Source: a virus | Reading direction: 5' to 3' (one strand) | Length of the DNA: 48,556 nucleotides | Virus record (IMG/VR): IMGVR_UViG_3300021057_000005 | Coordinates: 1 to 48,556 of that record | Part shown: piece after piece, positions 33,504-48,556 of the stretch | Numbering within the stretch: position 1 is the stretch's first letter | Layout: the number at the start of each line of letters is the position of its first letter | Notes under the pieces: model-generated | Told to the model about the DNA's origin: nothing | What the model saw: the letters and a program-made list of their open reading frames with translations, nothing else | The model's database searches: none | Position numbers and translations under genes: made by a program

Positions 33504-33509
33504 CGTCGA

Positions 33510-33961: not shown

Positions 33962-33998
33962 GTAGAAAAGTGGAAATATTTTAAACATGTTATATAAT
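33962..33998 (+). promoter_or_regulatory. 37-nt conserved promoter-like element, copy X (ends in TATAAT 33993-33998)
   Basis: GTAGAAAAGTGGAAATATTTTAAACATGTTATATAAT; a partial third copy AGAAAAGTGGAAATA lies at 33931-33945. Confidence 0.45.
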
Positions 33999-34004
33999 TA
34001 GTAT

Positions 34005-34247
34005 ATGACAAGGTTGAATGAGGCAAGTGTCATGTCAACATTATATGACGATATCATAGAGTTCGAGAAAGAAACAGGAAGAGATTGGGTAGGGATTCAA
34101 TATGAAAATGGCAACATATCTATATTAGATCATACAAGCATTGCAATAGTAGTTATGTCGAACAAACAAAAGTACATACAAATAAGAATAGGATATCAAG
34201 ATGGCAACAAGCAGTACCCATTCTTTATCAATATACCGATTAAATAG
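34005..34247 (+). CDS. hypothetical protein (start uncertain: 34005 would be leaderless; an alternative ATG follows a GAGG)
   Basis: The track ORF's ATG lies 7 nt after the TATAAT of element X. An internal Met (MSTLYDD) has GAGG 8 nt upstream. Confidence 0.45.
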   Translation: MTRLNEASVMSTLYDDIIEFEKETGRDWVGIQYENGNISILDHTSIAIVVMSNKQKYIQIRIGYQDGNKQYPFFINIPIK

Positions 34248-34256
34248 GAGAGTGTC

Positions 34257-34385
34257 ATGAGTGAATATACGATTTATTACCATCAGTATCACCAATGGGC
34301 AGTTAGCAATAAATTAGGTGTTGTAGCAAGCTTTAATACTCAAGAAGAAGCTGAAGAATATGTAAGGAACAAAGAAAGTAAGTAA
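34257..34385 (+). CDS. 42-aa hypothetical protein
   Basis: RBS GGAG; MSEYTIYYHQYHQWAVSNKLGVVASFNTQEEAEEYVRNKESK. Confidence 0.4.
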   Translation: MSEYTIYYHQYHQWAVSNKLGVVASFNTQEEAEEYVRNKESK

Positions 34386-34586
34386 TAAGCGGACATGGAA
34401 GCGGACATAAGTATGAAGAATATTGTTATAAATCAAATAATTATTATAAATATATAAGGACATAATAAGCGCCGTGATAAGTAGATGTATCAGCATCTAC
34501 CTACCACTAACTAACAGATAAACTCGGTATCTGCCAGCTAAAATAACACTAGCATGACAGACGCCTAAAACACAAGGGGTTGTGTC

Positions 34587-34883
34587 ATGACTATAGAGAC
34601 AATGCATGCTTTATGGCAGTTTGCAGCAACGGGATCAGTCATATTTTTATTTGGAGGATATTTTTTATTTAGCGCAATGAAGGCAGCTTGTGAAGGCATG
34701 GGAGATGGCGGCAAGTCAGTAAAAGAAGAGGAGGATGAATCTCGTCAGGCATCTGGTGGTTCAGCACCACAACGAGCAAGCTTAGCAGAGAGAGATTGTG
34801 TGCGATTTGGATATACGGTCAGCAACCACCATCGCTACGGAACAGAAGAAAGCGACAGGAATGGGGGCTGCCATCATGAGTAA
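34587..34883 (+). CDS. small membrane protein (hypothetical)
   Basis: N-terminal TM (GSVIFLFGGYFLFSAM); the SD AAGGGG lies in the loop of the ACACAA/TTGTGT hairpin. Confidence 0.45.
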   Translation: MTIETMHALWQFAATGSVIFLFGGYFLFSAMKAACEGMGDGGKSVKEEEDESRQASGGSAPQRASLAERDCVRFGYTVSNHHRYGTEESDRNGGCHHE

Positions 34884-35193
34884 TATAGAACAAGAAGTTA
34901 CAGAATATAAATATTTAGTAATAGATCAGTTTGATACGACTTGGTTTACTTATGCAATACCAAGAGGAGCAGCAAAACCAACAGTAGTAGCGATGAATGA
35001 TAGCTGGGAGGATGCGGTATTTGATCTAGGAGAGAGGCTTAATTACTTACGACAACAAGGGTGGGAGATATCCGGGGTTAATCGTAATGAGCAGATTTTT
35101 GATTATTTAGTGAGGTTAAAGAAGCCGGATTATGTATCAATAGATGTTATGAAAGTAGATATTCATGGAGACCGCTGCCATGAAGAATTATAA
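34876..35193 (+). CDS. hypothetical protein
   Basis: Internal ATG (MSNIEQEV...) of track ORF 34798.., overlapping the previous stop. Confidence 0.45.
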   Translation: MSNIEQEVTEYKYLVIDQFDTTWFTYAIPRGAAKPTVVAMNDSWEDAVFDLGERLNYLRQQGWEISGVNRNEQIFDYLVRLKKPDYVSIDVMKVDIHGDRCHEEL

Positions 35194-35368
35194 CAAGGCT
35201 CCAGATCTTAGTAGCGTGATAATTAAAAGTTCTCGGGAAAGAAATACAACGAAGAAATTAACGGATGCAGAATTAATAAATATGACAGATAGATTCTTTG
35301 GAGTCTGTGACGAAGTAGAAGAAAAGGTTAAAGAGAAAGTGAAAGAATATGTGAGGAGAGTGCCATGA
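35180..35368 (+). CDS. hypothetical protein
   Basis: ATG after GGAGA (MKNYNKAPDL...). Confidence 0.45.
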   Translation: MKNYNKAPDLSSVIIKSSRERNTTKKLTDAELINMTDRFFGVCDEVEEKVKEKVKEYVRRVP

Positions 35369-35520
35369 CAGAATTCCTAACGCAAACACATGTAAATAAA
35401 TTTTATCAGCACATGCAAGATAGAAGAGCAAACTACGACATGCGCATTGAACGTGAGAAGCATAATATGGTGTTGCATGATTTGATTGAAGAGTATTCTG
35501 AACAGGTTGATCTTGAGTAG
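35365..35520 (+). CDS. 51-aa hypothetical protein
   Basis: ATGA coupling; MTEFLTQTHVNKFYQHMQDRRANYDMRIEREKHNM... Confidence 0.35.
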   Translation: MTEFLTQTHVNKFYQHMQDRRANYDMRIEREKHNMVLHDLIEEYSEQVDLE

Positions 35521-35530
35521 TGGGGTAAAT

Positions 35531-35728
35531 ATGTCATACGTAATAGTATTTTCATTAGTAGCGTGGGTGTTTTGGTCACTGTATGAAGCAGCAAAAAACA
35601 TTGTTGCTACAACGGATAGACGACATTTAATTCAGCATCATAAAGTAATTAACGAATTATTACATAAAAAGAGAGAAGCGATGGAGCAGCAAGCTAAGGC
35701 GGACATCAACCATGAGGAGACCAAATAA
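35531..35728 (+). CDS. small membrane protein (hypothetical)
   Basis: MSYVIVFSLVAWVFWSLYEAA; ATG after GGGG. Confidence 0.4.
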   Translation: MSYVIVFSLVAWVFWSLYEAAKNIVATTDRRHLIQHHKVINELLHKKREAMEQQAKADINHEETK

Positions 35729-35743
35729 CTGAGGTAGTGTGCC

Positions 35744-35935
35744 ATGTTTACCAAGCTAGAAATTAGAATAGAAGATACCAATAATAATAAATTAGAAAAA
35801 CTATCCTGGGCAGGCGGCGAAAATTTCAAAGTTAGTCATCACAGCAACACATTCTTTAAGCGAATCAAAAAAACCCAATCAGAAATTGCAGAAATCAAAG
35901 CAGAAATAGAACAGTTAGTTCGGCGGCTACTGTAA
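35744..35935 (+). CDS. hypothetical protein
   Basis: Track ORF with RBS GAGGTAG. Confidence 0.45.
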   Translation: MFTKLEIRIEDTNNNKLEKLSWAGGENFKVSHHSNTFFKRIKKTQSEIAEIKAEIEQLVRRLL

Positions 35936-35983
35936 TAGTTTCATGACACAGTCCAAGGATGGATCTTTTTTAAGGAAAATTTT

Positions 35984-36559
35984 ATGATTTACATTCTAGG
36001 AACACCACAAGAAACTGCGCAAGCGCTGGATGATAAGTCATTAGATAGGATGATTAAGGATATTGCGCAGGTGTTGTGTAACGTTCATTGGTTGGATCAT
36101 GCTATTCGGTATAGTCCCAATCTTGAAAGATTTGAAAAATTAGAAAATTCTGTTCCTTTAAAAGAGAAAAGTTTAAATACATGTTCTTGGTCACAATGGG
36201 CTAAGGACTGTGAGGCGAATTATTTGTATTTGGTTGAGTTGGGACTAGAATTAATGGTTGAGCATGTATATCCTAGATGTTTAGGTCCCACAAATAAGTA
36301 TATGGAAGCTATTTTATGGGCGAAAGGTAACGTGCCTGTTTTGACTGGGGACGAGTACATGACTTGCCCCCTCTATTTTCCGCTAGTGATGCCGAAGAAA
36401 TATTATAGATGCAATTGTGATGAAAAAGGGTATTTTAGGTGTGACTGGGGAAGCGAGCAAATTAATACGATTGAATCATACCGCAACTATTACCGCAGTA
36501 AATTAAAAGGCAGTGAAGTATGGACACGTCGAGAAAAACCAGACTGGCTTAATTTATAG
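35984..36559 (+). CDS. hypothetical protein (weak resemblance to pyrimidine-dimer glycosylase-type N-termini)
   Basis: 191 aa; MIYILGTPQETAQALDDKSLDRMIKDIAQVL...; the assignment is not secure. Confidence 0.45.
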   Translation: MIYILGTPQETAQALDDKSLDRMIKDIAQVLCNVHWLDHAIRYSPNLERFEKLENSVPLKEKSLNTCSWSQWAKDCEANYLYLVELGLELMVEHVYPRCLGPTNKYMEAILWAKGNVPVLTGDEYMTCPLYFPLVMPKKYYRCNCDEKGYFRCDWGSEQINTIESYRNYYRSKLKGSEVWTRREKPDWLNL

Positions 36560-36629
36560 GAGAAAGCAACGACATAAATTAATATAAAAACATCACGAGA
36601 TAAGAATAATTATATTAACGAGGTGTGAA

Positions 36630-36857
36630 ATGAAAATCGATCCAGAAATGGTAGGTGGTACTATTCTTAGTATCGTAATCTTTATCGTCTTTATTTTCTT
36701 TGGTAAGTATATCTCAAACGATGCATATGCCGCAACTCAACTCACTGTGAAGTGCACTTACGATGATTTGTATGTTAATACAGATCACGTAAATAGTCAA
36801 GCTTTTAATATCCGAAGTAGTGATTCTCGTGCGCATTGTGTAGCAGAGGAAGAATAA
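36630..36857 (+). CDS. small membrane protein (hypothetical)
   Basis: RBS GAGGTG; TM ILSIVIFIVFIFFG. Confidence 0.5.
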   Translation: MKIDPEMVGGTILSIVIFIVFIFFGKYISNDAYAATQLTVKCTYDDLYVNTDHVNSQAFNIRSSDSRAHCVAEEE

Positions 36858-36858
36858 T

Positions 36859-37056
36859 ATGAAAAAGCTTATAACTACTGAACTGCAAGGAATATTAGAT
36901 TCTCCCGAGGTCAGTGATGAATCAAAATTTCTTATAGAAAGAGCTCTCGAGCAATTAGCAGTAACTATTCAGAATGCAAAAGATAAGAACGGATTGAGAT
37001 TGTCATTGTTAGCAGCATTATTACCAACACCTTTTCCGACACAAGGAGAAGAATAA
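36859..37056 (+). CDS. hypothetical protein
   Basis: Track ORF, tightly packed. Confidence 0.5.
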   Translation: MKKLITTELQGILDSPEVSDESKFLIERALEQLAVTIQNAKDKNGLRLSLLAALLPTPFPTQGEE

Positions 37057-37057
37057 C

Positions 37058-37270
37058 ATGAAAGGCATACTAGAGTTTGATTTAAATGATTTTGAAGACA
37101 GAAAGTCATTTAATCGAGCGAACAAGGCATTGGATATGGCGTTAGCTCTCATTGAGATAAGAGAAAAATTACGAAATCATGAAAAATATGAGGCAGCTCC
37201 GTTAGATAGAGGGGAATTCTTTAACATTCTAGAAGAGTATGGAATTAACTTAGAACAACTTGTTAGTTGA
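37058..37270 (+). CDS. hypothetical protein
   Basis: Track ORF, tightly packed. Confidence 0.5.
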   Translation: MKGILEFDLNDFEDRKSFNRANKALDMALALIEIREKLRNHEKYEAAPLDRGEFFNILEEYGINLEQLVS

Positions 37271-37278
37271 GGATGTAT

Positions 37279-37377
37279 ATGTCTGGCGAAGATATAGACT
37301 CATTAAAATTATTTATAGCGTCTACTGTAATTGTAATTATGACTATTGGGTTTGCGATTTTCTTTCTAACATTTTGA
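37279..37377 (+). CDS. 32-aa membrane peptide (hypothetical)
   Basis: RBS GAGGA; MSGEDIDSLKLFIASTVIVIMTIGFAIFFLTF. Confidence 0.3.
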   Translation: MSGEDIDSLKLFIASTVIVIMTIGFAIFFLTF

Positions 37378-37386
37378 GGACAATTT

Positions 37387-37551
37387 ATGAAATCTCCCGA
37401 ATGGCAGCCTTCTAAAAAATTAAAGTCCTTAATGAATCGCTATATTAGATTAAATGCGGAATATTTAGTAACACGTAATAAAAAACTAGAACAAGAGCTA
37501 TTTATAATAAAAACAGACGTGTTAAATAATCTGTTTGCGGAGGGATTATGA
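37387..37551 (+). CDS. 54-aa hypothetical protein
   Basis: RBS GAGGA; ATGA-coupled to the next ORF. Confidence 0.35.
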   Translation: MKSPEWQPSKKLKSLMNRYIRLNAEYLVTRNKKLEQELFIIKTDVLNNLFAEGL

Positions 37552-37739
37552 TGTTTGACCTGCGAATTGCCTTTGAGGACGAAAATGGAAATGTTATTAA
37601 GTGGAAAGGAGGAACACATTATAAAAATAAAAAAGATAAGACGGAAGATTATGTCGAAATAAATCAAGATGAAGAAGAATTAATTGAGAAAATATCCCGC
37701 CTTAAAAAGATGATAGCGGAGATTTTATATGCAAAATAA
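37548..37739 (+). CDS. hypothetical protein
   Basis: Track ORF. Confidence 0.5.
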   Translation: MMFDLRIAFEDENGNVIKWKGGTHYKNKKDKTEDYVEINQDEEELIEKISRLKKMIAEILYAK

Positions 37740-37914
37740 ATGCCATTTTTGTGGGGCCAGATACTCCACTACAATCATCAAGGATTTAGGATTTTGCTCC
37801 TCTAGTTGCGAGTTCGAATACTCCGGAGCAGATAAAGATGATTATTATCCTACTAGATCAGAAGAACAAGAGATGTTAGATATTTTCAATGTCAGGAACA
37901 ATCCAAATGAATAA
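37729..37914 (+). CDS. small Cys-containing protein (hypothetical)
   Basis: CHFCGARY...CSSSCE. Confidence 0.45.
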   Translation: MQNKCHFCGARYSTTIIKDLGFCSSSCEFEYSGADKDDYYPTRSEEQEMLDIFNVRNNPNE

Positions 37915-38191
37915 GATATTATTGGTTCTTACAATAGCATTTCATTACGTTGTGTTCGTAGCTTTTTTATTAACATGTGTTTTGAGCATTTTTAATATGC
38001 CATGGTATCTCGCTCTTACACTAGATGCTCTGATATTTAGAGTAGTTTTCTCAAGAGCAGAGTGCCCCTTAACAAGCTTGGAAAATTATTATAGAAGAAA
38101 ATTGTTAATAGATGATTCAAAAGGATTTCTAAAAGATTACATCATTAATCCAAAACGAACTATAACATTTTTATATGGAAAATTGGTATGA
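37907..38191 (+). CDS. DUF2784-like membrane protein
   Basis: Two TMs then ...RAECPLTSLENYYRRKL, the CPLT.LE motif I associate with DUF2784. Confidence 0.45.
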   Translation: MNKILLVLTIAFHYVVFVAFLLTCVLSIFNMPWYLALTLDALIFRVVFSRAECPLTSLENYYRRKLLIDDSKGFLKDYIINPKRTITFLYGKLV

Positions 38192-38886
38192 GTCGTGAAC
38201 CCTGTGACCAATGTGGCGCTCGCAGAGGAAGGGCAGAGTACGAGAATGGATCCTTCTGCCATGCATGCAAGCATAAAGAATCTGCTAGAAGTTTGGTAAG
38301 CCAGGCAGCTATCAAAGAGGCATTGATAGTTCCGGAGTATAATGAAGACCCCATGCCGCAGGAAGCACAGAAATATTTAGATAAGTATTACATAACTAAA
38401 AGACATATACGTAGTAAACATATTTTTTGGTCTCCTTTGTATCAACGGATATGTTTTCCTACATGCTCATTACGATTAGAAACATTTTTAGAAGCAGAAT
38501 CCGTTTGGGCAAGATCGCTTGACGTTAATAGAAAAGATAAATGGTTGTTTATAGGTCCCGCTGAACAAAAGAACCGGCTGTTTCGTAGCAGAAACAATGA
38601 AAACAACCGGTTGATAATTGTAGAAGATGTTGTGAGTGCAATTCGTGTAGCAGATTTTTGTGATTGTTTGGCGCTTGGGGGCACCAATGTTAACTCTCCT
38701 CAGCTGGTGCCCATTTTTTTATACTACGATCGTTTAGTTTGTATGTTTGATCCAGACGAAGCAGGGAAAAAAGCCACAGCAGAATTTAAAAAGCGGTACA
38801 GTTTATTGAAACCAATCGATGTGATAAAAGTTAATAAAGATCCAAAATGTTATGATCCAATTTCATTGGAGAGGCTACTAAAATGA
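38188..38886 (+). CDS. DNA primase (zinc finger + TOPRIM)
   Basis: CDQCGARRG...CHACKHK zinc finger; IIVEDVVSAIRVA (TOPRIM Glu); MFDPDEAGKKA (DxD). Confidence 0.7.
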   Translation: MSREPCDQCGARRGRAEYENGSFCHACKHKESARSLVSQAAIKEALIVPEYNEDPMPQEAQKYLDKYYITKRHIRSKHIFWSPLYQRICFPTCSLRLETFLEAESVWARSLDVNRKDKWLFIGPAEQKNRLFRSRNNENNRLIIVEDVVSAIRVADFCDCLALGGTNVNSPQLVPIFLYYDRLVCMFDPDEAGKKATAEFKKRYSLLKPIDVIKVNKDPKCYDPISLERLLK

Positions 38887-40103
38887 TTGAATTACAACTA
38901 TTAAAAGCTTTCTCTATAAAGGCAAATTTAGAGGCGTATAAGCATCTTATTAATCCCAAGACGCTATCAAGTCAGGGTATTGAATTACTAAAAGATTTTG
39001 AAGTATATTTTGCCCAGAATCCAGAAGAAAAAAAGATAGATTTTAATCGCTTTAGTACGTTCTTCTTTATTGAAAGGCATCCATTCTTTGATAATGCCAA
39101 GATAACAGAATATAAAGAAATATTAAAGAATCTTGCCAATGCTTCTGAAGACCATATAAAAAAGCTATTGAATAGTTTTGAGACACAAGAATTCTATAAC
39201 AATATGCATGTTTTACTGGACAAAAATACTGATTTCGCCGTAATAAAAGATCGCATACTAGACTTTGATAATAAGCTTGCCGAGTTATCAAATACAGTAG
39301 ATCTGTCAGTAAATATGGATTTAGATGACGCCCTTATTCAAGCGGACAGATCAGGAGGATTGGCATGGAGACTTCCTGTATTACAAGACCATTTCCAAGG
39401 AGGCTTAATTAAGGGAGATTTCGGTATTGTTGCCGGATACACAGATTCTGGTAAGACATCCTTCTTAGCATCCGAATTGTCCCACATGGCAACACAACTC
39501 ACTGGTGACCAGTATATCCTATGGTTAAACAATGAAGGCGATTGGAGGCGCATTCTGCCTCGCATATACAGCGCTGCCCTAGGATGCACGTTTAAGGAGT
39601 TACTAGATAATAAAGAGAAAGCCAAAGCCAGATACAAAGAGTTAATGAAAGGGAACGAGAATAGAATCAAAATCGTCGATATACAAGGGAAGCATGTTAA
39701 AGACCTAGAAAGATTATTTAAACAGCAGCCACCAGCACTAGTTGTATTTGATATGTTAGACCACGTAAGAGGGTTTGAAAACTATATGGGAGACAATTCT
39801 GGCAACCAGGAGCGTTATAAAAAGCTGTATCAATGGGCGCGGGAAATGTCTTCACAGTATTGTCCCATGATTGCTACATCTCAATTAAATCGAGAAGGGA
39901 ATAATGTTATGTATCCAGAGGTCACTAATCTAGAAGGATCTGGTGTAGCAAAGCAAGGAGCAGCTATTTTTATGCTATTCATAGGCGCACTGACGGGAGA
40001 AGACACGGTTCGTTATTTAAGCACTCCTAAATTTAAGATCACGGGCAATAAGAGCTGGTGCAAAGCAGTTAAATTTGACCCTAGTCGAGCGAGGTTTTTA
40101 TGA
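38883..40103 (+). CDS. DnaB-like replicative helicase
   Basis: Walker A AGYTDSGKTSF, Walker B LVVFDMLD, ...ATSQLNREG; ATGA-coupled to the primase. Confidence 0.75.
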   Translation: MIELQLLKAFSIKANLEAYKHLINPKTLSSQGIELLKDFEVYFAQNPEEKKIDFNRFSTFFFIERHPFFDNAKITEYKEILKNLANASEDHIKKLLNSFETQEFYNNMHVLLDKNTDFAVIKDRILDFDNKLAELSNTVDLSVNMDLDDALIQADRSGGLAWRLPVLQDHFQGGLIKGDFGIVAGYTDSGKTSFLASELSHMATQLTGDQYILWLNNEGDWRRILPRIYSAALGCTFKELLDNKEKAKARYKELMKGNENRIKIVDIQGKHVKDLERLFKQQPPALVVFDMLDHVRGFENYMGDNSGNQERYKKLYQWAREMSSQYCPMIATSQLNREGNNVMYPEVTNLEGSGVAKQGAAIFMLFIGALTGEDTVRYLSTPKFKITGNKSWCKAVKFDPSRARFL

Positions 40104-40270
40104 GACTCTTTAAAGAGTGCAAACCTACCAGGCAAGACAAGGTAATTGAAGAACAAGCAAATAAACTAGAATATTATTATATAGGTAATACATTTTATTT
40201 ATTTTCGCAAGGCATTGAATTTACTGAAGATAAAAAAAGTAAAGTAAAGTTCAATTTGACAAAAAAATAA
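40100..40270 (+). CDS. 56-aa hypothetical protein
   Basis: ATGA coupling to the helicase; its 3' end overlaps the promoter at 40256. Confidence 0.3.
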   Translation: MRLFKECKPTRQDKVIEEQANKLEYYYIGNTFYLFSQGIEFTEDKKSKVKFNLTKK

Positions 40271-40284
40271 TCACCTCCTATAAT
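40256..40284 (+). promoter_or_regulatory. consensus sigma70-type promoter (TTGACA-N17-TATAAT) embedded in a 10-bp inverted repeat
   Basis: TTGACA 40256-40261; TATAAT 40279-40284. CTATAATTAA-N7-TTAATTATAG spans 40278-40304. Confidence 0.55.
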
Positions 40285-40317
40285 TAACATATAATTAATT
40301 ATAGAGGAAAATTAGCC

Positions 40318-40758
40318 ATGTCTGAATATAACTTTCGAGAAGTAAAACCGATAAGAAATAGAGTATTGGGGAAAAAACAAGAGAATCTGAACGAAAAAGT
40401 AAAGGCGGGGTTTATTAGACACTCCGTAAAAGCAAAAAATGGAGAAAAAGTAATTCATATTTTGTCTCTTTTGATAGGAATTGATGTAGCAAAAGAAATA
40501 GGAGTGAAGTTGGGAGACAAAGTGAAAATTTTCGTTGCTGAGGATAGTCCACGCACATTGTTAATAACAGCATGCCGGGACGGGGTCGGCCATACAGCCA
40601 GCAAACTACCTAAATCAAGCACAGCGCCAATGCTCCGGGTTTTAAAAGAATGGCAAGAATTTGTTCCAAAAGAAACTGAATTTGCAACAAAAAATGTCGA
40701 GTTTGAATTTACGCGTGGAGGGATCGTAGTGTTTTTGGGAGGGAGATTACCAACATGA
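40318..40758 (+). CDS. hypothetical protein (possible AbrB/SpoVT-like fold)
   Basis: ...LLIGIDVAKEIGVKLGDKVKIFVAED... resembles a swapped-hairpin motif; the call is weak. Confidence 0.4.
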   Translation: MSEYNFREVKPIRNRVLGKKQENLNEKVKAGFIRHSVKAKNGEKVIHILSLLIGIDVAKEIGVKLGDKVKIFVAEDSPRTLLITACRDGVGHTASKLPKSSTAPMLRVLKEWQEFVPKETEFATKNVEFEFTRGGIVVFLGGRLPT

Positions 40759-40782
40759 TAAGAAGAATAATAATGGGGGCTT

Positions 40783-42825
40783 ATGTATCTAGTCTTCGAT
40801 GCAGAAACGACGATGAGAGGAGGATTTGGAAGGGACTCTAATCCATTTATAGATAAGATTTTGTGTACTGGGTATAAATATCAGAAACCTAAATTACTTG
40901 GATATAACGCTATTGATGCGTTGTTAGGAAATTACCAGCCCACAGATTTATTTTCAACCAAACAGGATTATCCATTACCAGGGTTTCTGAATGATGTAGA
41001 TACTTTAATAGGCCATAATATCAAGTTTGATTTATTGTTTATTTGGAGGAGCCATGAATTACAGAATTATCTTAAGAGGGGAGGAAGAATCTGGGACACC
41101 CAACTTGCAGAGTACTTATTATCTGGACAACGCCACAAATATCCAGCTCTTCGAGATATTGCAGTCAACCGCTACGGCTGTAGGGAAAGAGTTAAACACC
41201 TTGAGGGAAAAAATACGGAAGAAGTCCCAATAGAGTTATTATTAGAAGACGTAAGAAATGATGTTTTAGATACCGAAGCAGTCGCACTCCAGCAAGCCAA
41301 GCTAACCAAAGAAAAACAAATGCATGCCTTATGTAAGACTCAGATGGAAGGGCTCCTTGCCACTACTGAGATGGAATTCAATGGCATGTATATTGACAAA
41401 CAAAAGCTTCTCGAAAATAAAGCCGTTCTACAAAACGAATATGATAATGCACTAAGGGAATTAATGCTTTTAGTTAACAAGCATTGGAATCCTGCCACTC
41501 CTTTTAATTCCGGCTCACCAAAACAAGTAAGCCAGCTATTCTTTGGCGGGATCATCAAATATAAAGCGCGTGAGCCTATCTTGAATGCATTAGGCGTACC
41601 TGAAGTTATTAAGTCAGGAGTTAATCGCGGAACTGTGAAAACCAAATTAATGGACAAAACGATAGACTATAAAGGATTGGGATTAAAACCAAATCTTTCC
41701 TGGGAAAACAACAATGGATATCGTACAGATGAAGAGGTGCTCGACCTTATAGCAAAAAGACCAAATACAGATGCAGGCAAAATCGCAATACAAATGCTTA
41801 AAATTCGAGAATTGTCTAAGCAGCTAAATACTTATTATACCGGCTTTGAAAAGCTTATATATGATTGGGATGGCTGCATACACGGCCACATTAGTCATTG
41901 TGGATACGAAGGAAACGACAAGAAGGGAGGAGGGACAGCCACTGGCAGAACGTCTTCTGTCAATCCCAATCTGCAAAACATTCCTCGAGCCAAAGGCTCC
42001 TTAATCAAAGAACATTTCACTAGCCGGTTTGAAGGCGGTGTCATTATTGAAGCCGATTTTAAACAGCTAGAAGTAGTAGCCTTTGCTTTCCTTACCCAAG
42101 ATCCTGGTCTAATCGCTGATATAGTAAACGGCGTAGATATTCATAAGCGCAATGCGTCTATCATTTACAGCATACCAGAAAGTGAAGTTACTGCTGATCA
42201 ACGCCAATTGGTGAAGATGGCAACATTTGCAATCATTTATGGTGCGGGAGCCAATCGTATAGCAAATGATATGAATATTTCTAAGGAATTTGCTAAGTCT
42301 ATTATTAATACATTCTTTAAACGGTATCCCATTGCCAAACGTTGGCAGGACAATTTGATAAAAAAAGTAGAAAGCACTAAATACATAATAAATGAATATA
42401 CTAAAAAAGGCCATCGTCGACACGAAGGATATTACCAGAATGTAACCGGGCGGTTGCTATATTTTAAAACAAATGACTCTCCAGATTGGAAGGCCGAGCA
42501 AGGAGAGTTGACCGGTTTTAATCCCCCAGATATTAAAGATTATCCAGTACAATCATTTGCTACTGCAGATATTGTATTAATGTTTCTTGGGGCATTATTT
42601 AGACAATTCATAGATTTTAGGAGCGAATTTCTATTAGTAAATACGGTTCATGACAGCATAGTGATAGATTGTAAGCAAGAAAGTGTACAAAAATGTTGCA
42701 ATATTATAAAAAGTGTGGTACAATTAATATATGATGAAGTAGAAAACAATTTTGGAATAAAGTTTAACGTACCAATAGGGATAGACATTAAGGTAGGGAA
42801 AACTTGGCGAGAGTGTGGATTATAA
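40783..42825 (+). CDS. family A DNA polymerase with 3'-5' exonuclease domain
   Basis: Exo I VFDAETT, Exo II GHNIKFDL, motif A IEADFKQLEV, motif B RQLVKMATFAIIYGAG, motif C VNTVHDSIV. Confidence 0.9.
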   Translation: MYLVFDAETTMRGGFGRDSNPFIDKILCTGYKYQKPKLLGYNAIDALLGNYQPTDLFSTKQDYPLPGFLNDVDTLIGHNIKFDLLFIWRSHELQNYLKRGGRIWDTQLAEYLLSGQRHKYPALRDIAVNRYGCRERVKHLEGKNTEEVPIELLLEDVRNDVLDTEAVALQQAKLTKEKQMHALCKTQMEGLLATTEMEFNGMYIDKQKLLENKAVLQNEYDNALRELMLLVNKHWNPATPFNSGSPKQVSQLFFGGIIKYKAREPILNALGVPEVIKSGVNRGTVKTKLMDKTIDYKGLGLKPNLSWENNNGYRTDEEVLDLIAKRPNTDAGKIAIQMLKIRELSKQLNTYYTGFEKLIYDWDGCIHGHISHCGYEGNDKKGGGTATGRTSSVNPNLQNIPRAKGSLIKEHFTSRFEGGVIIEADFKQLEVVAFAFLTQDPGLIADIVNGVDIHKRNASIIYSIPESEVTADQRQLVKMATFAIIYGAGANRIANDMNISKEFAKSIINTFFKRYPIAKRWQDNLIKKVESTKYIINEYTKKGHRRHEGYYQNVTGRLLYFKTNDSPDWKAEQGELTGFNPPDIKDYPVQSFATADIVLMFLGALFRQFIDFRSEFLLVNTVHDSIVIDCKQESVQKCCNIIKSVVQLIYDEVENNFGIKFNVPIGIDIKVGKTWRECGL

Positions 42826-42841
42826 AAACGAGGTAATAACC

Positions 42842-43498
42842 ATGGCTTTAAATCAAACTTATAAAAAATCAGAAGGCGGAGAATTCTTTCTTATACCAGA
42901 GGATTCCTACATAGCCAAACTGTATTCTATCGTAGATCTTGGAGAACAAGACACTGGTTTTAGAAAGTTTAAAGAAGATAAAGTAACTGGCAAAAAAACT
43001 GATATGGGGCCATTGATTCAAAACAAAGTAATGCTTTCCTTTGAATTGGAAGGAGTGGCCGTATCAGACGGCCGACCAGCAGTTATTAGCAATACATATA
43101 CAGCATCGTTAAATGAAAAAGCCACATTAGCGGACGTATTACTTTCATTATTGGGCGGCGGAGCAGAAGCAAAAGAATATTTATTTACCGAAGGTCGCCA
43201 GGTAGGAGAAGTATTAGAAAGTGTTGCAGGAAAGGCCGTTTTATTATCTATTATTCATAATAAAAAAGGTGATAAAACATATGCCAATATTAAATCGGTA
43301 AGCCCTGTTCCTTCTTCTCTGAAGAAATCAGTAACGCCATTGATTAATGAGAAAGTGGTAGTTTTAGACGTGGATAGTATTGATCCTGTCGTGTTAAGCA
43401 AATTATCCGATTTTGTAAAAACAAAGATTAATAACCGCATCAAATCAGTAGACGTCCACAACAAACAAATATTCGACGATACAGAAAATCCTTTCTAA
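42842..43498 (+). CDS. hypothetical protein (possible ssDNA-binding/DUF669-like)
   Basis: ATG after GAGGT; the track ORF begins at an upstream GTG (42815) overlapping the polymerase. Assignment rests on position in the replication module only. Confidence 0.35.
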   Translation: MALNQTYKKSEGGEFFLIPEDSYIAKLYSIVDLGEQDTGFRKFKEDKVTGKKTDMGPLIQNKVMLSFELEGVAVSDGRPAVISNTYTASLNEKATLADVLLSLLGGGAEAKEYLFTEGRQVGEVLESVAGKAVLLSIIHNKKGDKTYANIKSVSPVPSSLKKSVTPLINEKVVVLDVDSIDPVVLSKLSDFVKTKINNRIKSVDVHNKQIFDDTENPF

Positions 43499-43625
43499 CG
43501 GCTCCCTTGAAGATCCTCTAGGCCTGTGGGATCTGCGTGAGTGCAATAAACAGGCCATCCATTTTAATAATACTAGTAGTTACCACTGATTATACCTACT
43601 TGTATTATCAATCGGGAGGTATTCC

Positions 43626-44567
43626 ATGCCTTGGAAGAAAACAAAGTTAAAAAATCGTGATTGCTATACGCTATCGGATACAGAAGTAAAATATCTTGAT
43701 ATCAAATCCGTTACTTTGGATCAGATGAATGATCCTGATAGACTTATATTCCTTAGTGAAAATCCCAATTTTTTAAAAGAACACATAGACGACAGTAATA
43801 TAGAAGAGCTTCCTGCTGGGATTTATAATGTAGTGGCAGAAGGGATATTCTCAGACCCCAAATTAGTTCCCATGGTTCCTGCACATGACGATGTTCTATT
43901 TGAACTATCAGTAATTGATTCGGTATTACAGGATTTTCGAGCATTTACTAAAAATAAAGATCTATATAAAAAATTAGGGCTTTTAAACAAACGAGGAGTG
44001 TTGTTATACGGAGTGCCTGGTACAGGGAAAACTACGGCGATAAATTTAATTGTTAGTAAATTGCGTCCAAAAAATAGTATTGTGCTTTATGTATCTAGGG
44101 AGTTGCCAGTAGATCTTATAGAAGAATTTAAATCTGATCCCCGGCTAAAAATTATTATATTTGAAGAATTAACAGAAACTTTAAAGCAATACGGCACCAA
44201 CGGATTATTACGATTTTTGGATGGTGAAAATTCCCTAGATAATATGTATGTTATTGCTACTACAAATTATCCAGAGGAATTACCAGGCAATATCGTAGAT
44301 CGCCCAGGCAGATTTGATATAATTTATCAAATTAATTTATTAGCTGACAAAGATCGTGAAAAATATTTGAAGCATCTTCTTAAACGCAATATTCTTAAAG
44401 CCGAATTGGTTGCTACGAAATCGATGTCTATAGCACAAATAAAAGAGATAATCTTATTATCTAAATTATATGACGTTTCAATTACATCAGCAGTGGACTT
44501 AATCAAATCCCAGAAAGAAACAGCAAAGAAAAAATTTAAAAATCGTGATAGCGACGCGGGGTTTTAA
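43626..44567 (+). CDS. AAA+ ATPase (classic AAA clade)
   Basis: Walker A GVPGTGKT, Walker B IIIFEE, second region of homology ATTNYPEELPGNIVDRPGRFD. Confidence 0.7.
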   Translation: MPWKKTKLKNRDCYTLSDTEVKYLDIKSVTLDQMNDPDRLIFLSENPNFLKEHIDDSNIEELPAGIYNVVAEGIFSDPKLVPMVPAHDDVLFELSVIDSVLQDFRAFTKNKDLYKKLGLLNKRGVLLYGVPGTGKTTAINLIVSKLRPKNSIVLYVSRELPVDLIEEFKSDPRLKIIIFEELTETLKQYGTNGLLRFLDGENSLDNMYVIATTNYPEELPGNIVDRPGRFDIIYQINLLADKDREKYLKHLLKRNILKAELVATKSMSIAQIKEIILLSKLYDVSITSAVDLIKSQKETAKKKFKNRDSDAGF

Positions 44568-44568
44568 C

Positions 44569-45690
44569 ATGCGAACAATGACCCCGATGGAATTATTAGA
44601 TAGCGTGCCTGACCCAGTTCAGACGGTGGCTGCCCTTGATGAATATATTATTGGGCAGGCAGAAGCAAAACGTACGTTGGCATTAATGATGATGTATAGA
44701 GCTCTTATTCGATTGAAAGATAATAATTTAATAAAATTAGATACTGATATTCCAAAAGCAAATGTTCTTTTACTAGGTCCAACCGGAACAGGAAAAACTG
44801 CATTAATGCGAGCACTGTCCGAAATTATGGATATTCCTATTTCTATTAATGATATTACTTCAGTCACATCAGCAGGATACATAGGCGGCAAAGTAGAAGA
44901 TATTCTAGTTAACCACGTCAATGTCTGTAATGAGTATGTTGCTCAAAATTACGAGCGGCTGTGTTATAAGGTGGATTTGGAAAGAGTTCCTTATGGAATG
45001 GTTCTGATGGACCATATAGAAAATGGAATTATTTATATTGATGAAATTGATAAGATTTGTAAAAAAAGCAATGATCTGGATGTTTCTGGTGATCTTGTTC
45101 AAAACGAGCTTCTGAAAATACTAGAGTCAGGAAAAGTAAATTTAGGCAATAGCAGAATGCCTCTTCCTTCGTGTGGAATAAGAAGCCTCCAAACACAAAA
45201 CATTTCCTTCGTATGTGGCGGCGCATTTAGTGGTTTATCCGATATTATTTACAAAAGAACAAGTAAATCGGCAGGCATTGGATTCGGCGCAGATATGGCA
45301 AGTTGCTCCACAAATGATGAGCGTATGAATTCTATTTTATCTGAAGTAACGACTCAAGATTTAATTGATTATGGATTTAAAGCAGAGTTTTTAGGACGGG
45401 TTCCCTTACGAGCCTGCTTGAAAGGTTTAGATGTTCCAACACTTGAAGAAATTATTATTAAGCCACGAAACTCTATTTTAAATCAGTACCTTGGTCTATT
45501 TAAAGCGTTTGGTGTGAATTTAGTAGTTGAGAAAGAGGCGATGCATGCCATAGCTGAAAAAGCGCTTGCAATGAAAATGGGAGCCAGGTCACTGCAACAC
45601 TTATTTAATAATGTATTCTCTGAATATTTATTTAATATTTTCTCTCACACAAAGAAAAAAATAATAATAAAAAAAGAGCATGTTTTATGA
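44569..45690 (+). CDS. clpX: ClpX-like AAA+ unfoldase lacking the N-terminal zinc-binding domain
   Basis: LDEYIIGQAEAK, LLLGPTGTGKTAL, pore loop SAGYIGG, IIYIDEIDKICKK, DVSGDLVQNELLKILE, IGF loop SAGIGFGA, FLGRVP, MGARSLQ. Confidence 0.8.
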   Translation: MRTMTPMELLDSVPDPVQTVAALDEYIIGQAEAKRTLALMMMYRALIRLKDNNLIKLDTDIPKANVLLLGPTGTGKTALMRALSEIMDIPISINDITSVTSAGYIGGKVEDILVNHVNVCNEYVAQNYERLCYKVDLERVPYGMVLMDHIENGIIYIDEIDKICKKSNDLDVSGDLVQNELLKILESGKVNLGNSRMPLPSCGIRSLQTQNISFVCGGAFSGLSDIIYKRTSKSAGIGFGADMASCSTNDERMNSILSEVTTQDLIDYGFKAEFLGRVPLRACLKGLDVPTLEEIIIKPRNSILNQYLGLFKAFGVNLVVEKEAMHAIAEKALAMKMGARSLQHLFNNVFSEYLFNIFSHTKKKIIIKKEHVL

Positions 45691-46487
45691 CAATTTGTTT
45701 AATAGATGCTGATGTTTTGAAATATAGTTGTGGATATTCTATCGAGAAAAGGGAAGTTGGAGACGAATATAACACTATCATTGTAGAACCCGTAGAACAC
45801 GCATTCTATAACATTAATAGCATAATTAAGAAAGTGCTAGATAGGTGCAAATCCAAAAAATACAAATGTTTTCTTACTAAGATGGGGGATAGAAGTAATT
45901 ATAGATACTCCATAGATCCTGATTATAAGGTCAATCGAGCCAAGGCAGGAAAGCCCATTTATTATGAAAGCTGTCATAATTTTATTTTATCCTCGCACCA
46001 AGCATTTGAAACAGAAGGCCAAGAAGCCGATGATGCGGTAAGTATAGAGCATTGTACATTACATCCATTCGGTTTTGATCCAGCGATTAAAAATTCCATT
46101 ATTTGTAGCATTGATAAAGACTTTAATAATGTGCCCGGATGGCACTATAACTGGCGCAGGGATGAGTTGTATTTTGTCACAGAATTAGATGCATTAAAAA
46201 ATTTCTACCTTCAGATTCTTACTGGCGATACATGTGATGATATACCTAGAATTAAGAAACGATGGCGTAAGAAGCAAGCTGAGGCCTCTTTACAGAAAGC
46301 GACAACAGAACAAGAAATGTTTGAAATAGTGTTTTTAGAAGTATTAAAAACTATGCAAGACGAAGGACATTCAACTTACGCAGTTAATAAAAAAATAACA
46401 GAGCGAGGACAACTTGTATGGCTACGCAGAACCCCAAACGAAATGTGGCAAATCCCTTCCACCAATTCTATAACGAGCAAGATTTAG
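45687..46487 (+). CDS. 5'-3' exonuclease / flap endonuclease-like (PIN-like) nuclease
   Basis: ICLIDADVLKY, GQEADDAVS and SIDKDFNNV acidic clusters typical of FEN/T5-exonuclease-type enzymes. Confidence 0.55.
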   Translation: MTICLIDADVLKYSCGYSIEKREVGDEYNTIIVEPVEHAFYNINSIIKKVLDRCKSKKYKCFLTKMGDRSNYRYSIDPDYKVNRAKAGKPIYYESCHNFILSSHQAFETEGQEADDAVSIEHCTLHPFGFDPAIKNSIICSIDKDFNNVPGWHYNWRRDELYFVTELDALKNFYLQILTGDTCDDIPRIKKRWRKKQAEASLQKATTEQEMFEIVFLEVLKTMQDEGHSTYAVNKKITERGQLVWLRRTPNEMWQIPSTNSITSKI

Positions 46488-46612
46488 AATTTCTAATAGA
46501 CGAATTGACCTTATTTATCCCCATCTTTACTGATGATCAGCTTGCCTATGTAAAAGATTATATTGATACAGAAATAGAGGATAGGGCGCATGAACAAAAA
46601 CAAAGGCATTAA
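46418..46612 (+). CDS. hypothetical protein
   Basis: RBS GAGGA; overlaps the previous gene by 70 nt. Confidence 0.35.
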   Translation: MATQNPKRNVANPFHQFYNEQDLEFLIDELTLFIPIFTDDQLAYVKDYIDTEIEDRAHEQKQRH

Positions 46613-46805
46613 AAAGAACAGCGCCCAATGCTCAAATTGCAAAGACATTCTCATATCTAAACATATACATGATTGGGTAGCGTGTTCTTGCTGGAAGCAC
46701 GGAACAGGTATTTTTGTAGATGGAGGAAATGAATACTTAAGAAGAGGATGGGGAGAGGATGGAACTGGGCCAATTGAATTGAGTGAATACTATGAAGAAG
46801 AATAA
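46590..46805 (+). CDS. small zinc-binding protein (hypothetical)
   Basis: CSNC...H..CSC pattern. Confidence 0.45.
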   Translation: MNKNKGIKKNSAQCSNCKDILISKHIHDWVACSCWKHGTGIFVDGGNEYLRRGWGEDGTGPIELSEYYEEE

Positions 46806-47154
46806 AAAGACATGTAAGAAATTAGCAAGTCCTAAAGATAAAGGCACCGGATTCGAACGAGAAATAGTAAAACAGTTCCAACGGCACCAATTAGAAGCAA
46901 AGCGAGCATGGGGAAGTAATGGCGAAGCGATGGGAGAACATAAGGAAGTAGATGTATTGGTTAAATACGATAAACCGAATCAGCTCGGCATACTTCATCA
47001 ACGTGCTATTCGTTTGCAATGTAAACGTAAGGGAAAACTACCCGCGTATTTAGGACTAACTGAGCATGTGGATGCCGCAGTTTTTAGAGAAGATCATGGA
47101 CAAAGTTATATTTTATTACGATTAGAAGACTTCATTTTGAGGTACTTATCATGA
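46783..47154 (+). CDS. PD-(D/E)xK nuclease, archaeal Hjc-like Holliday junction resolvase (putative)
   Basis: KGTGFEREIVKQF...GSNGE...EVDVLV...LQCKRK fits the G.xxE...D...(E/Q)xK layout. Confidence 0.45.
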   Translation: MNTMKKNKKTCKKLASPKDKGTGFEREIVKQFQRHQLEAKRAWGSNGEAMGEHKEVDVLVKYDKPNQLGILHQRAIRLQCKRKGKLPAYLGLTEHVDAAVFREDHGQSYILLRLEDFILRYLS

Positions 47155-47306
47155 AAGCCAGTGAACATACAATAGAAAAATTCAAATGGATTTCTAAGCA
47201 TTTAAACCTGTCCCCAATGGAAACGTTTGATGTAGTTGTCTATCAAGTATATCAACAATTAAAAGAACTAGATGATTACTATAAAGGTAATAATTCCGAT
47301 GAATAA
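47151..47306 (+). CDS. 51-aa hypothetical protein
   Basis: ATGA coupling; MKASEHTIEKFKWISKHLNLSPMETFDVVVYQ... Confidence 0.35.
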   Translation: MKASEHTIEKFKWISKHLNLSPMETFDVVVYQVYQQLKELDDYYKGNNSDE

Positions 47307-48048
47307 AAAACCAAAAATATTATTATATGATATAGAAACAAGTCTTAGTGTTGTTGCTACTTTCTCTTTGTTTAATCAATATATCGGCCATGAAAATATT
47401 CTACAAGATTGGAATATATTAAGTGCTGCATGGAAATGGCTCGGTGAAAAAAGAGTCCATTCGATTCATGTTTGGGACGATGTAGAGAATGATAAAGAAG
47501 TGGTTAAAGCCCTGGCAGCAGCCATTAGCGAAGCAGATATTATTGTAGGGCACAATAGCGCCAAATTTGATTTAAAGAAATTGAACACGCGCTTGCTATA
47601 TCACCGCCTTCCTCCTCTCGATAAACGAGTATTGCAAATAGATACTTTGAAAGCTGCTCGGAAGCACTTCGCATTTACTAGCAACAGACTAGATTATTTA
47701 GGTGAGTATCTTGGTATTGGAGGCAAGAAGCCTACTCCTAATGGGCTGTGGAGAGATATTTTAAAAGGAAATAAACGCAAGATTATGGAGATGGTTGCGT
47801 ATAACAAACACGATGTTTCTCCTCTGCTTGAGGGAGTATACACAGCAATGCGCCCCTACATAGATCATCCAAACATGGGAGGATTCTTTGATGATGGACG
47901 AGAACATTGTCCTAACTGTGGATCTGACAAAATTCACAAACATGATAAGAGGCCTACCAAAGCAGGTGCCCTAAACCAAAGATACCGTTGTACCGAATGC
48001 GCATCTATATCTTGTAAAAAAATTCATGAAGCTCCAAAACTAAAATAG
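47299..48048 (+). CDS. DEDD-type 3'-5' exonuclease (RNase H-like fold) with a C-terminal zinc ribbon
   Basis: LLYDIETS (Exo I), GHNSAKFDL (Exo II), YNKHDV (Exo III), CPNCGSD...CTECAS. Confidence 0.6.
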   Translation: MNKKPKILLYDIETSLSVVATFSLFNQYIGHENILQDWNILSAAWKWLGEKRVHSIHVWDDVENDKEVVKALAAAISEADIIVGHNSAKFDLKKLNTRLLYHRLPPLDKRVLQIDTLKAARKHFAFTSNRLDYLGEYLGIGGKKPTPNGLWRDILKGNKRKIMEMVAYNKHDVSPLLEGVYTAMRPYIDHPNMGGFFDDGREHCPNCGSDKIHKHDKRPTKAGALNQRYRCTECASISCKKIHEAPKLK

Positions 48049-48058
48049 GAGTTGTATT

Positions 48059-48556
48059 ATGGTATTTATAGAAAATGGCGATAGAACTGAAGATATTTAT
48101 TCTAGTCTGCTTCGAGACAGGATTATTTTCATTGGTGAAGAAATCACTCCGGAATTAGCCAACGAAGTAGTTGGTCAACTGTTGTTATTAGAAATACAAG
48201 ACAAAAATAAAGATATAAAAATATATATTAATTCTCCAGGAGGAGATATTACTTCTGGATTTGCAATATATGACACCATGCAATTCATTAAACCAAAAGT
48301 ACATACCGTTTGCATGGGCATGGCAGCAAGTATGGCAGCGATATTGCTCGCAGCAGGAGAAAAAGGCTGCCGTAAGGCGTTGCCTCATGCAGAAATTATG
48401 ATTCATCAACCTTCTGGCGGTTTTGACGGAACTACAACGGATGTTCTTATTTATGCAGGCATGTTGCAAAGATGCAAAGAGACTAGCATCAATGTCCTAT
48501 CAAAACATACGAAACAAAGCAAAAAGAAGGTTTCTGCGGATTTAGAAAGAGATTAT
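48059..48556 (+). CDS. clpP: ClpP protease subunit, 5' part (open at the window end; completed by nt 128-193 after circularisation, 187 aa total)
   Basis: Not in the ORF track because there is no in-window stop. Translation MVFIENGDRTEDIYSSLLRDRIIFIGEEI...YINSPGGDITSGFAIYDTM...CMGMAASMAAILLAAG...AEIMIHQPSGG carries the ClpP Ser/His motifs. Confidence 0.85.
   Translation, partial: MVFIENGDRTEDIYSSLLRDRIIFIGEEITPELANEVVGQLLLLEIQDKNKDIKIYINSPGGDITSGFAIYDTMQFIKPKVHTVCMGMAASMAAILLAAGEKGCRKALPHAEIMIHQPSGGFDGTTTDVLIYAGMLQRCKETSINVLSKHTKQSKKKVSADLERDY
48430..48556. repeat. 127-bp exact terminal direct repeat, copy 2
   Basis: Identical to nt 1-127. Confidence 0.95.

Follow-up and report, generated by a model that had tools for sequence, protein, structure and literature searches.

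A zinc-domain-less ClpX, a canonical ClpP and a Bcs1/YjoB-like ATPase in a 48-kb SU10-like phage: a probable phage-controlled Clp module

IMG/VR virus record IMGVR_UViG_3300021057_000005, which we analysed over all of its 48,556 nucleotides (hereafter the window), encodes a ClpX-type unfoldase, a ClpP-type peptidase and a further AAA+ ATPase in a run of plus-strand genes that they share with replication genes. The locus raises the question of whether a small phage controls Clp proteolysis with machinery of its own, as an earlier note made from the sequence had proposed, or whether these genes have separate and unconnected roles. We found the three open reading frames (ORFs) at 43626..44567 (ATPase), 44569..45690 (ClpX) and 48059..193 (ClpP, running over the contig end), with the stop codon of the ATPase gene ending 1 nt before the ClpX ATG at 44569. 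The answer that we consider probable is that they belong to a phage-controlled Clp proteolysis and remodelling module, which would be independent of the host adaptors that act through the ClpX zinc domain and would not serve as a head protease.

The gene at 44569..45690 (+; 373 aa) encodes a true ClpX, which is confirmed by profile and by fold, both placing the protein closer to ClpX than to HslU. Against NCBIfam it scored 298.5 bits with PRK05342 versus 148 bits with HslU; an AlphaFold model built from an alignment of its closest relatives reached a predicted local distance difference test (pLDDT) value of 88; and the 50 best Foldseek matches of this model in the PDB were all ClpX, at template modelling (TM) scores of 0.71-0.84. 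Both measures speak against membership in a non-ClpX AAA+ family. The hallmark motifs lie where the earlier note had placed them and at the positions expected from alignment: Walker A GPTGTGKT (aa 70-77; 44776-44799), the pore-1 loop GYIG (aa 103-106; 44875-44886), Walker B IIYIDEIDK (aa 154-162; 45028-45054), the IGF loop SAGIGFGA (aa 234-241; 45268-45291), an Arg finger EFLGRVP and the sensor-II motif GARSL (aa 338-342; 45580-45594). SAGIGFGA aligns with GSGIGFGA of Escherichia coli ClpX; the segment that carries it is the lowest-confidence part of the model, which is expected of a flexible loop.

What the protein lacks is the N-terminal C4 zinc domain. Its alignment to E. coli ClpX in the PDB begins at residue ~57-65, right after that domain, as had been noticed from the sequence, and the zinc-binding domain PF06689 was not found in it; translation could also begin at a GTG in the same frame at 44545, but this is less likely. 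Two further differences concern the loops near the pore and the body of the AAA+ module. In the alignment to solved structures the RKH loop is absent, with NSRMPLPSCG in its place, and an insertion of ~28 aa (aa 121-149; 44929-45015) precedes Walker B. A protein search placed the window ClpX in a clade of ~30 zinc-less ClpX proteins set apart from cellular ClpX. The clade members are 41-56% identical to the window protein and 366-397 aa long, and many lie on 44-49 kb contigs, whereas the cellular ClpX matches are at most 41% identical and have the zinc domain; the score drops from 256 to 238 bits between the two groups. PF06689 was found in none of the ~30 clade members, all of which begin at the AAA+ module. 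In the same alignment, the G and F of the IGF tripeptide are invariant and the I is nearly so, amid variable flanks. The loss of the zinc domain means that substrate choice cannot go through host adaptors of the SspB type, which tether there. Phage ClpX and ClpP are already known; this zinc-less clade in SU10-like phages of ~48 kb is new.

The second component, ClpP, is complete only if the contig is closed on itself. Bases 1..127 are an exact direct repeat of 48430..48556, so that the 127 bp stand at both contig ends; the contig is a circularly closed assembly and a complete genome, with a true size of 48,429 bp (48,556 minus the 127-bp overlap). Through this repeat the ORF 48059..48556 (+; the first 166 codons of clpP), which runs over the contig end, resumes at 128..193 (+; the last 21 codons and the stop), and the wrap-around coordinate of the earlier note is thus right. 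The 187-aa product carries SPGG, GMAASMAA (Ser), MIHQP (His) and ERD (Asp), begins with MVFIENGDRTEDIY, and matches Pfam CLP_protease (PF00574) at 5e-77 over positions 2-181 of 182. It scores above the NCBIfam cut-offs of PRK00277 (265.6 > 249) and PRK12553 (238.8 > 228) and below the equivalog cut-off of TIGR00493 (246.8 < 308.6). It is 56-61% identical to the ClpPs of many bacterial phyla, and no bacterial ClpP closer than 61% was found in 5.8 billion clusters.

PHROG labels most ClpP-like phage proteins as head maturation proteases, and a rival reading is that this ClpP, a membrane-anchored ClpP-like protein encoded next to it, or both mature the head, with ClpX and the ATPase being unrelated. 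The head module consists of TerS, TerL, an SU10-type portal, two unassigned genes, a scaffold-like protein and a capsid protein, plus an SU10-type adaptor, and contains no detectable protease and no tape-measure-sized gene. The capsid protein (19073..19981, -) matches only the capsid (C-terminal) part of PHROG protease-capsid fusions, the protease part being absent. A missing head protease and a capsid of this type would fit such a role. The phage is, however, SU10-like or podovirus-like in its virion genes, with an SU10-like tail, and in podoviruses of the SU10/T7 style a head that has a separate scaffold commonly requires no protease. The peptidase is also of the cellular type: it passes PRK00277 and falls below the cut-off of the head-maturation model NF045542 (102.4 < 120), and its gene lies on the opposite strand to the capsid gene, ~19 kb away across the circular junction. 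Related phages, moreover, lack a canonical ClpP near the syntenic slot, and the ClpP-like neighbour has hydrophobic, membrane-type termini. The cellular-type score and the protease-free head module make a prohead-protease role unlikely, as the earlier note had argued from the distance between clpP and the head genes, and we regard it as very improbable.

The neighbour in question is a second, divergent ClpP-fold protein of 242 aa (190..918, +), recognized by weak PHROG matches to ClpP-type proteases. The TGA stop of clpP overlaps its ATG (ATGA, 190-193), and the reading frames suggest that it is translationally coupled to clpP. Hydrophobic N- and C-terminal segments enclose a core that is divergent and ClpP/NfeD/SppA-like; it apparently retains the Ser and His positions (GEAYSAH and MFHG, aligned by eye). 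Its orthologues in related phages give weak matches to CLP_protease, NfeD1b_N or SDH_protease and are more widespread than canonical ClpP, occurring in L003, L087, L159, L161 (two copies) and L164, and weakly in L001 (L numbers designate related contigs).

We next compared gene neighbourhoods in these relatives, covering ±10 kb of 12 contigs. They share a T7-like replication module of Toprim primase, DnaB-like helicase, PolA, ClpX, 5'-3' exonuclease and endonuclease VII, and ClpX lies downstream of PolA, adjacent or one to two genes off, in all relatives in which PolA is visible, whether or not they have ClpP. In the 11 genomes with enough sequence, the window included, sensitive searches of the loci found a canonical ClpP in five (the window, L085, L086, L159 and L162). 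L161 has only two divergent ClpP-like paralogues; L001, L003 and L087 have ClpX and no ClpP within the ±10 kb, which in these three spans the syntenic slot from the dGTP-diphosphohydrolase-like gene to the lysis genes. The conserved unit of this phage family is thus ClpX, not ClpXP, and ClpP is accessory. A survey of co-occurrence had been suggested in the earlier note, which described the system as a self-contained ClpXP; that description fits this phage, and with ClpP in only 5 of 11 genomes it does not hold for the system in general.

An accessory ClpP and a ClpX that keeps its place in the replication module with or without ClpP would also suit a different reading, namely that ClpX mainly acts as a ClpP-free remodelling chaperone of the phage replication machinery and that ClpP is an unrelated accessory gene. 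There is precedent for such activity, as cellular ClpX disassembles the Mu transpososome and activates TrfA. Against it stands the essentially invariant IGF tripeptide amid variable flanks, retained also in the phages without ClpP within ±10 kb; we know of no role for this tripeptide other than ClpP docking. The invariance argues for selection on ClpP docking also in those phages that encode no ClpP, and docking on host ClpP is then likely there; for the ClpX of L001, L003 and L087 it is, judging from the loop, the most likely arrangement. We consider a mainly ClpP-free remodeller unlikely, if less so than a head protease, and retain the view that this ClpX works with ClpP.

Scanning the rest of the genome, we found a further gene that the earlier note had overlooked. 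The ORF 33589..33879 (+) in the early operon encodes, from an ATG at 33598, a 93-aa SspB-like substrate-binding domain (33598..33879). An HMMER search of 1.84 billion representatives with this protein returned 16 proteins, and its only relatives are SspB proteins, the longer of which end in an XB motif; 14 of the 15 members of the SspB alignment match PF04386, and the joint profile aligns colinearly with E. coli SspB at 1.2e-38. The protein itself is divergent (~30% identity). Full-length SspB homologues end in LKIVK, LRVVK or LKVIK, whereas the phage protein ends ...VIDLITGDGKS, stopping where the domain stops and lacking both a linker and an XB tail of the L-R-V-V-K type. SspB attaches to the ClpX zinc domain through its XB peptide (structure 8et3), and in this phage both ends of the tether, the ClpX zinc domain and the SspB-like tail, are gone. 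The simplest reading would be that the SspB-like protein serves as a decoy or anti-adaptor, either for the cargo of host SspB or for host SspB dimers; alternatively, it may bind the phage ClpX by a new adaptor mode and be a repurposed adaptor. The tail-less gene is thus directly relevant to the argument that host adaptors are excluded.

The third component, at 43626..44567 (+; 313 aa), had been described as an extra classic-clade AAA+ ATPase upstream of clpX. Its class assignment stands, with a match to Pfam AAA (PF00004) at 3.5e-13 and the Arg fingers DRPGRFD in the second region of homology (44298-44318); the generic label does not, as fold and family profile identify a Bcs1/YjoB-like protein. 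Its AlphaFold model (pLDDT 88.7, with low values over the last ~10 residues) gave Foldseek matches first to the Bcs1 AAA domain (1e-14) and YjoB (4e-13), then to Rpt subunits and Cdc48 from ~2e-10; the family profile matched YjoB in the PDB at 118 bits over the AAA domain; and among viral proteins its neighbours in structure are BCS1-like ATPases from crAss-like, jumbo and giant viruses. An N-terminal beta-rich domain (aa 1-85) is followed by Walker A GVPGTGKT (44010-44033), Walker B IIIFEE (44151-44168) and the motif ATTNYPE, and the protein ends in a C-terminal tail, KKKFKNRDSDAGF (44526-44564). The family is virtually missing from 185,579 bacterial species genomes. We rejected several other assignments: matches to the defence proteins IetA/IteA span the Walker A region only; a clamp-loader match in PHROG (1e-10) is surpassed by matches to unnamed ATPase families, and the protein has a second region of homology of the classic clade; and the "YjoB" of Xanthomonas phage phiXF1, considered as a cultured relative, has 1338 aa and a different architecture.

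It is the tail of this ATPase that suggests a connection with ClpP. The ClpP-docking tripeptide of Clp ATPases is (L/I/V)-G-(F/L) (PMC8745299), and among the 118 closest family members 70 carry this strict consensus within the last 22 residues, while the broader pattern [ILVMA]-G-[FILM] occurs there in 81, versus 5.6% of background windows. IGF is the most frequent form (26), followed by VGF (15), LGF (10), MGF (10), IGL (6) and AGF (5); the motif is terminal in some members and in others is followed by an acidic run. The window protein ends ...NRDSDAGF-COOH, with AGF at its extreme C terminus. A second subgroup ends D-[ED]-D-L-x3-I-L, and hybrids occur. The HslU tail EDLSRFIL, which this subgroup resembles, needs a conserved aromatic residue at -3 (PMC4106860); the phage tails have the same EDL-x3-IL spacing and mostly D, N, G or H at -3, and we rejected mimicry of HslU. 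No HslV gene was found in the relatives' loci.

Across the 11 genomes, it is the ATPase, rather than ClpX, that tracks ClpP. The five genomes whose ATPase carries an xGF tail, among them L162, which has no ClpX, all have a canonical ClpP, and none of the six that have an IL- or LL-tailed ATPase (L160, L161 and L164) or no ATPase (L001, L003 and L087) has one. At face value this split has 1 chance in 462, for genomes that are related to one another and visible over ±10 kb. In neighbour-joining (NJ) trees of helicase and ClpX, the ClpP- and ATPase-negative L087 and L001 stand beside the positive L085 and L086, a placement that suggests that joint loss or gain occurred at least twice. Between the two genes lie clpX and four to eight others. 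On these grounds we put forward, tentatively and as well short of an even chance, that the ATPase family is an unrecognized class of ClpP partner whose C-terminal x-G-F tails would enter the pockets that receive the IGF loops of ClpX. The ring would be chamber-type and possibly heptameric like Bcs1, hence symmetry-matched to ClpP, and once docked might deliver proteins to ClpP or open and deregulate it in the manner of acyldepsipeptides (ADEP).

Several results weigh against a phage-controlled Clp module or against parts of it. The ClpX scores fall under the NCBIfam equivalog cut-offs (298.5 < 359 for PRK05342; 274.4 < 370.75 for TIGR00382), although the missing zinc domain, the insertion and general divergence would each reduce the score. 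The SspB-like protein is below threshold in Pfam (E 1e-4; 22.9 bits, under the cut-off of 27), and its gene was not found in the relatives' loci. The N-terminal gating region of ClpP begins four residues into the E. coli mature sequence, and the relatives' ClpPs have an N-terminal hairpin that is longer by 3 residues, so that docking and gating may differ. The association of ATPase and ClpP comes from 11 genomes, windows of ±10 kb and poorly resolved NJ trees. Within the ATPase, no aromatic-hydrophobic-Gly pore-1 motif was found in the ~40 aa between Walker A and Walker B, which makes it unlikely to be a threading unfoldase, and the Ala of its AGF lies outside the strict docking consensus. We also sampled the wider ATPase family in IMG/VR, with the family-specific pattern TTNYPExLP, and in JGI metagenomes. 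The xGF tail persists in distant relatives without ClpP nearby; most loci with ~9 kb of flanking sequence have no ClpP, and the few ClpP-like genes near such ATPases are divergent and head-protease-like and give support neither way. The docking tail, if real, must therefore usually use host ClpP.

The phage ClpPs bear on the history of the partnership as well. All five retain the motifs of the catalytic Ser and His as well as the ERD Asp, and they are 50-65% identical to bacterial ClpPs and only 44-53% identical to each other, which allows for repeated acquisition instead of an old partnership. Taken further, this pattern, with the window ClpP ~60% identical to many bacterial ClpPs, could mean that the phage took its Clp genes from a host recently, as morons that lack an adapted phage function, or that the contig is chimeric. 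Such an origin is hard to reconcile with a zinc-less clade that stands apart from cellular ClpX by the drop in score and by identity, with the absence of any bacterial ClpP above 61%, with clade synteny conserved on many independent 44-49 kb contigs from different samples, and with a contig that closes on itself; we give it almost no credence.

The most serious competitor concerns the ATPase, which may be a replisome- or assembly-associated chaperone with no link to ClpP, its tail, xGF plus acidic residues, being a tether of the SSB or T7 gp2.5/gp4 type, in which an acidic tail has a hydrophobic residue at its end, or a stabilizer of the ring within its own oligomer. Its gene lies inside the replication module, between that of a 227-aa protein ending ...IFDDTENPF and clpX, and acidic tails with F or IL at the end are frequent in the family (...PDFWDDF, ...FDIPF, ...DEDLYKDIL). 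The missing aromatic pore loop and the lack of ClpP near most wider-family loci favour it, as do the facts that Bcs1 and YjoB are chamber-type chaperones and not protease partners (PMC9565160) and that jumbo-phage BCS1-like ATPases have been proposed to act in virion assembly (PMC7824862). Several features fit less well. The conserved part of the tail is x-G-F, often internal before variable acidic residues, rather than the terminal residue; ClpP accompanies xGF tails in five of five genomes versus none of six, one of the five lacking ClpX; and ClpP and the ATPase are jointly absent in at least two apparently independent cases. Geometry is a further consideration: classic-clade AAA proteins have their C terminus on the protease-facing side, as seen with HbYX tails. 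Weighing these, we find a chaperone without a ClpP link a plausible reading, somewhat short of an even chance, and a better prospect than direct docking of the tail on ClpP.

The 227-aa protein itself (42815..43498, +), encoded between PolA and the ATPase, has a C terminus that resembles those of SSB or T7 gp2.5-type proteins. It has no sequence match in the PDB, and in PHROG it matches only families of unknown function; we rejected its assignment as an SSB, for which the acidic end ...DDTENPF is the only ground. Relatives have genes of 166-253 aa without a Pfam match at a similar position before the ATPase or ClpX, and no sequence similarity between these and the 227-aa protein was detected.

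The phage-controlled module that we favour would work as follows. ClpX would be a hexameric unfoldase whose GYIG pore loops thread substrates and whose IGF loops dock on ClpP rings, these being the phage's own canonical ClpP here and host ClpP in the relatives without one. Substrates would have to be chosen by direct recognition of degrons through altered pore-proximal loops, with the RKH loop missing and a clade-specific helical insertion present, or through phage factors. The tail-less SspB-like protein would fit such rewiring, being able neither to tether to a zinc domain nor to be tethered. The Bcs1/YjoB-like ATPase may be functionally paired with ClpP, its family bearing a flexible tail with an (L/I/V)-G-(F/L)-like tripeptide and its gene appearing to have been gained and lost jointly with that of ClpP. 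Gene identities, motifs, folds, the losses of the zinc domain and XB tail, clade structure, synteny, conservation and co-occurrence are what we observed in the sequences and models; from them we infer complex formation, activity, timing and every substrate, as well as any work of the ATPase with ClpP. Defence proteins or a repressor as targets, which the earlier note offered as examples, are pure conjecture.

Beside these components, protease and chaperone genes seem unusually numerous in the lineage, given its genome size. A GroEL-type chaperonin is encoded in L161 (4939-6555), trypsin-like (Trypsin_2) proteases in L086, L087, L160 and L162, fragments of an M48-like peptidase in L085 and L162, and an M17 aminopeptidase between PolA gene fragments in L003/L004. 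PolA is broken into two to three ORFs, with small or unrelated genes between them, in L001, L003, L160, L161, L162, L163 and L164, which may reflect insertions of mobile-element or intein/intron type; in the window it is a single intact ORF (40783..42825). A ~270-aa SbmA/BacA-like (ABC_membrane_2) membrane protein occurs in L003, L086, L159, L162 and L163 and was not found among the window ORFs scanned.

The remainder of the genome offers some indications of lifestyle and host. A DNA similarity search of the window gave no match to deposited phages; the phage family is missing from INPHARED, and the clade from IMG/VR, where the best ClpX is 40% identical. No tRNAs or Rfam matches were found in the window. 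A tyrosine recombinase/integrase (2457..3584, +) is present in a phage that otherwise resembles a lytic podovirus with T7-like replication, and L003 and L086 likewise encode one; prophage forms seem rare, since the ATPase family is nearly missing from the 185,579 bacterial genomes. A gene with the dATP/dGTP diphosphohydrolase N-terminal domain PF18909 (1448..2197, +) is conserved across the phage family (also in L003, L085, L086, L087, L159, L162 and L164), and no PurZ-like gene turned up among the ORFs scanned. Between the divergent late (-) and early (+) blocks lies a 3.3-kb gap (28278..31605) with no ORF longer than 76 aa, in which two exact copies of the near-palindrome TGGTCTATGACCAT, at 30656 and 30743, flank two tandem 33-nt repeats (30676-30741); these repeats and palindromes are probably operators, promoters or an origin. 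Other genes include a small Cys-rich DUF7695 protein in the replication arm (46590..46805, +) and a gene transfer agent (GTA)-type holin with three transmembrane helices (PF11351; 26659..27060, -) adjoining the terminase genes. This holin and the SspB-like domain hint weakly at a proteobacterial host; ClpP is equidistant from many phyla.

Few protein-degradation machines are understood as well as ClpXP, and it is known that phages exploit the AAA+ proteases of their hosts or inhibit them. Phage ClpX and ClpP have so far been listed only in giant phages, with no function assigned, whereas here a compact 48-kb genome combines an unfoldase without its adaptor-docking domain, an adaptor that has lost its tether, a peptidase of the phage's own and a further ring ATPase. 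These parts, each small and soluble-looking, point to a deliberate rewiring of substrate selection; if the docking reading of the ATPase is correct, zinc-less ClpX, a tail-less SspB decoy and a docking ATPase would mean that small phages rewire the whole cellular Clp network. Should the ATPase dock, ClpP would be activated through a new architecture, in which a classic-clade AAA protein carries the docking motif on its tail, and ADEP deregulation would have a natural counterpart. Should it not, the zinc-less clade would still be a natural minimal ClpX for the study of adaptor-independent recognition.

Set beside E. coli ClpXP (PDB 6wrf, 8e91 and 8et3), the phage ClpX shares the fold at TM scores of 0.75-0.84, Walker A and B, a pore-1 loop of the GYVG type, the pore-2 region, IGF, the Arg finger and sensor-II, and the phage ClpP keeps the Ser-His-Asp triad. 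The phage system differs in that its ClpX has neither the C4 zinc domain nor the RKH loop and has gained the ~28-aa helical insertion, its ClpP has a shortened gating region, and clpX and clpP are not adjacent.

The ATPase invites comparison with mitochondrial Bcs1 (heptameric) and Bacillus subtilis YjoB (hexameric), in which an N-terminal beta-rich domain likewise precedes one classic-clade AAA domain. Both have been described as chamber-type chaperones with an atypical Walker B ED (PMC9565160); the phage protein shares the Glu at the first acidic position (EE versus ED) and the lack of an aromatic pore-1 loop. Unlike them, it has no transmembrane helix, a much shorter N-domain (~85 aa) and the conserved C-terminal x-G-F tail, a feature not described for Bcs1 or YjoB in PMC9565160. 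The tail tripeptides IGF, VGF, LGF and IGL appear to match the docking consensus of ClpX, ClpA and ClpC, which, in contrast, belong to another AAA+ clade and carry the motif on an internal loop; the window tail has AGF. In being short, hydrophobic and C-terminal the tails resemble the HbYX tails of PAN, Rpt and Cdc48 and the EDLSRFIL of HslU, from which the IL-tailed phage subgroup differs by ending D-L-x3-I-L without a conserved Phe at -3.

The SspB-like protein appears to share a homologous substrate-binding domain with SspB (PF04386; PDB 1ox8 and 8et3) but is that domain alone, divergent and without the means of tethering to the zinc domain of a ClpX; one earlier report describes an SspB encoded by a phage, gp18 of the T4-like Pseudomonas phage pf16 (PMC5587285). 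Among phages, the closest parallel is the ClpX, sometimes with ClpP, of jumbo phages and megaphages such as Bacillus phage G (gp257/gp258), Sinorhizobium phage Phosso, Salicola phage SCTP-2, Atu_ph07 and the Lak phages, which has been noted bioinformatically and only descriptively (PMC6102473, Attai et al. 2018; PMC7824862, Iyer et al. 2021). In phage G, a ClpP-like gene adjoins the ClpX gene. The jumbo-phage ClpX proteins that we examined (phage G, Phosso and SCTP-2) retain the CxxC...CxxC zinc domain; deposited phage ClpX proteins are at most 39% identical to that of the window and come from genomes of 200-600 kb, as opposed to a 48-kb SU10-like phage in which a zinc-less ClpX sits with a Bcs1-like ATPase and an SspB-like gene.

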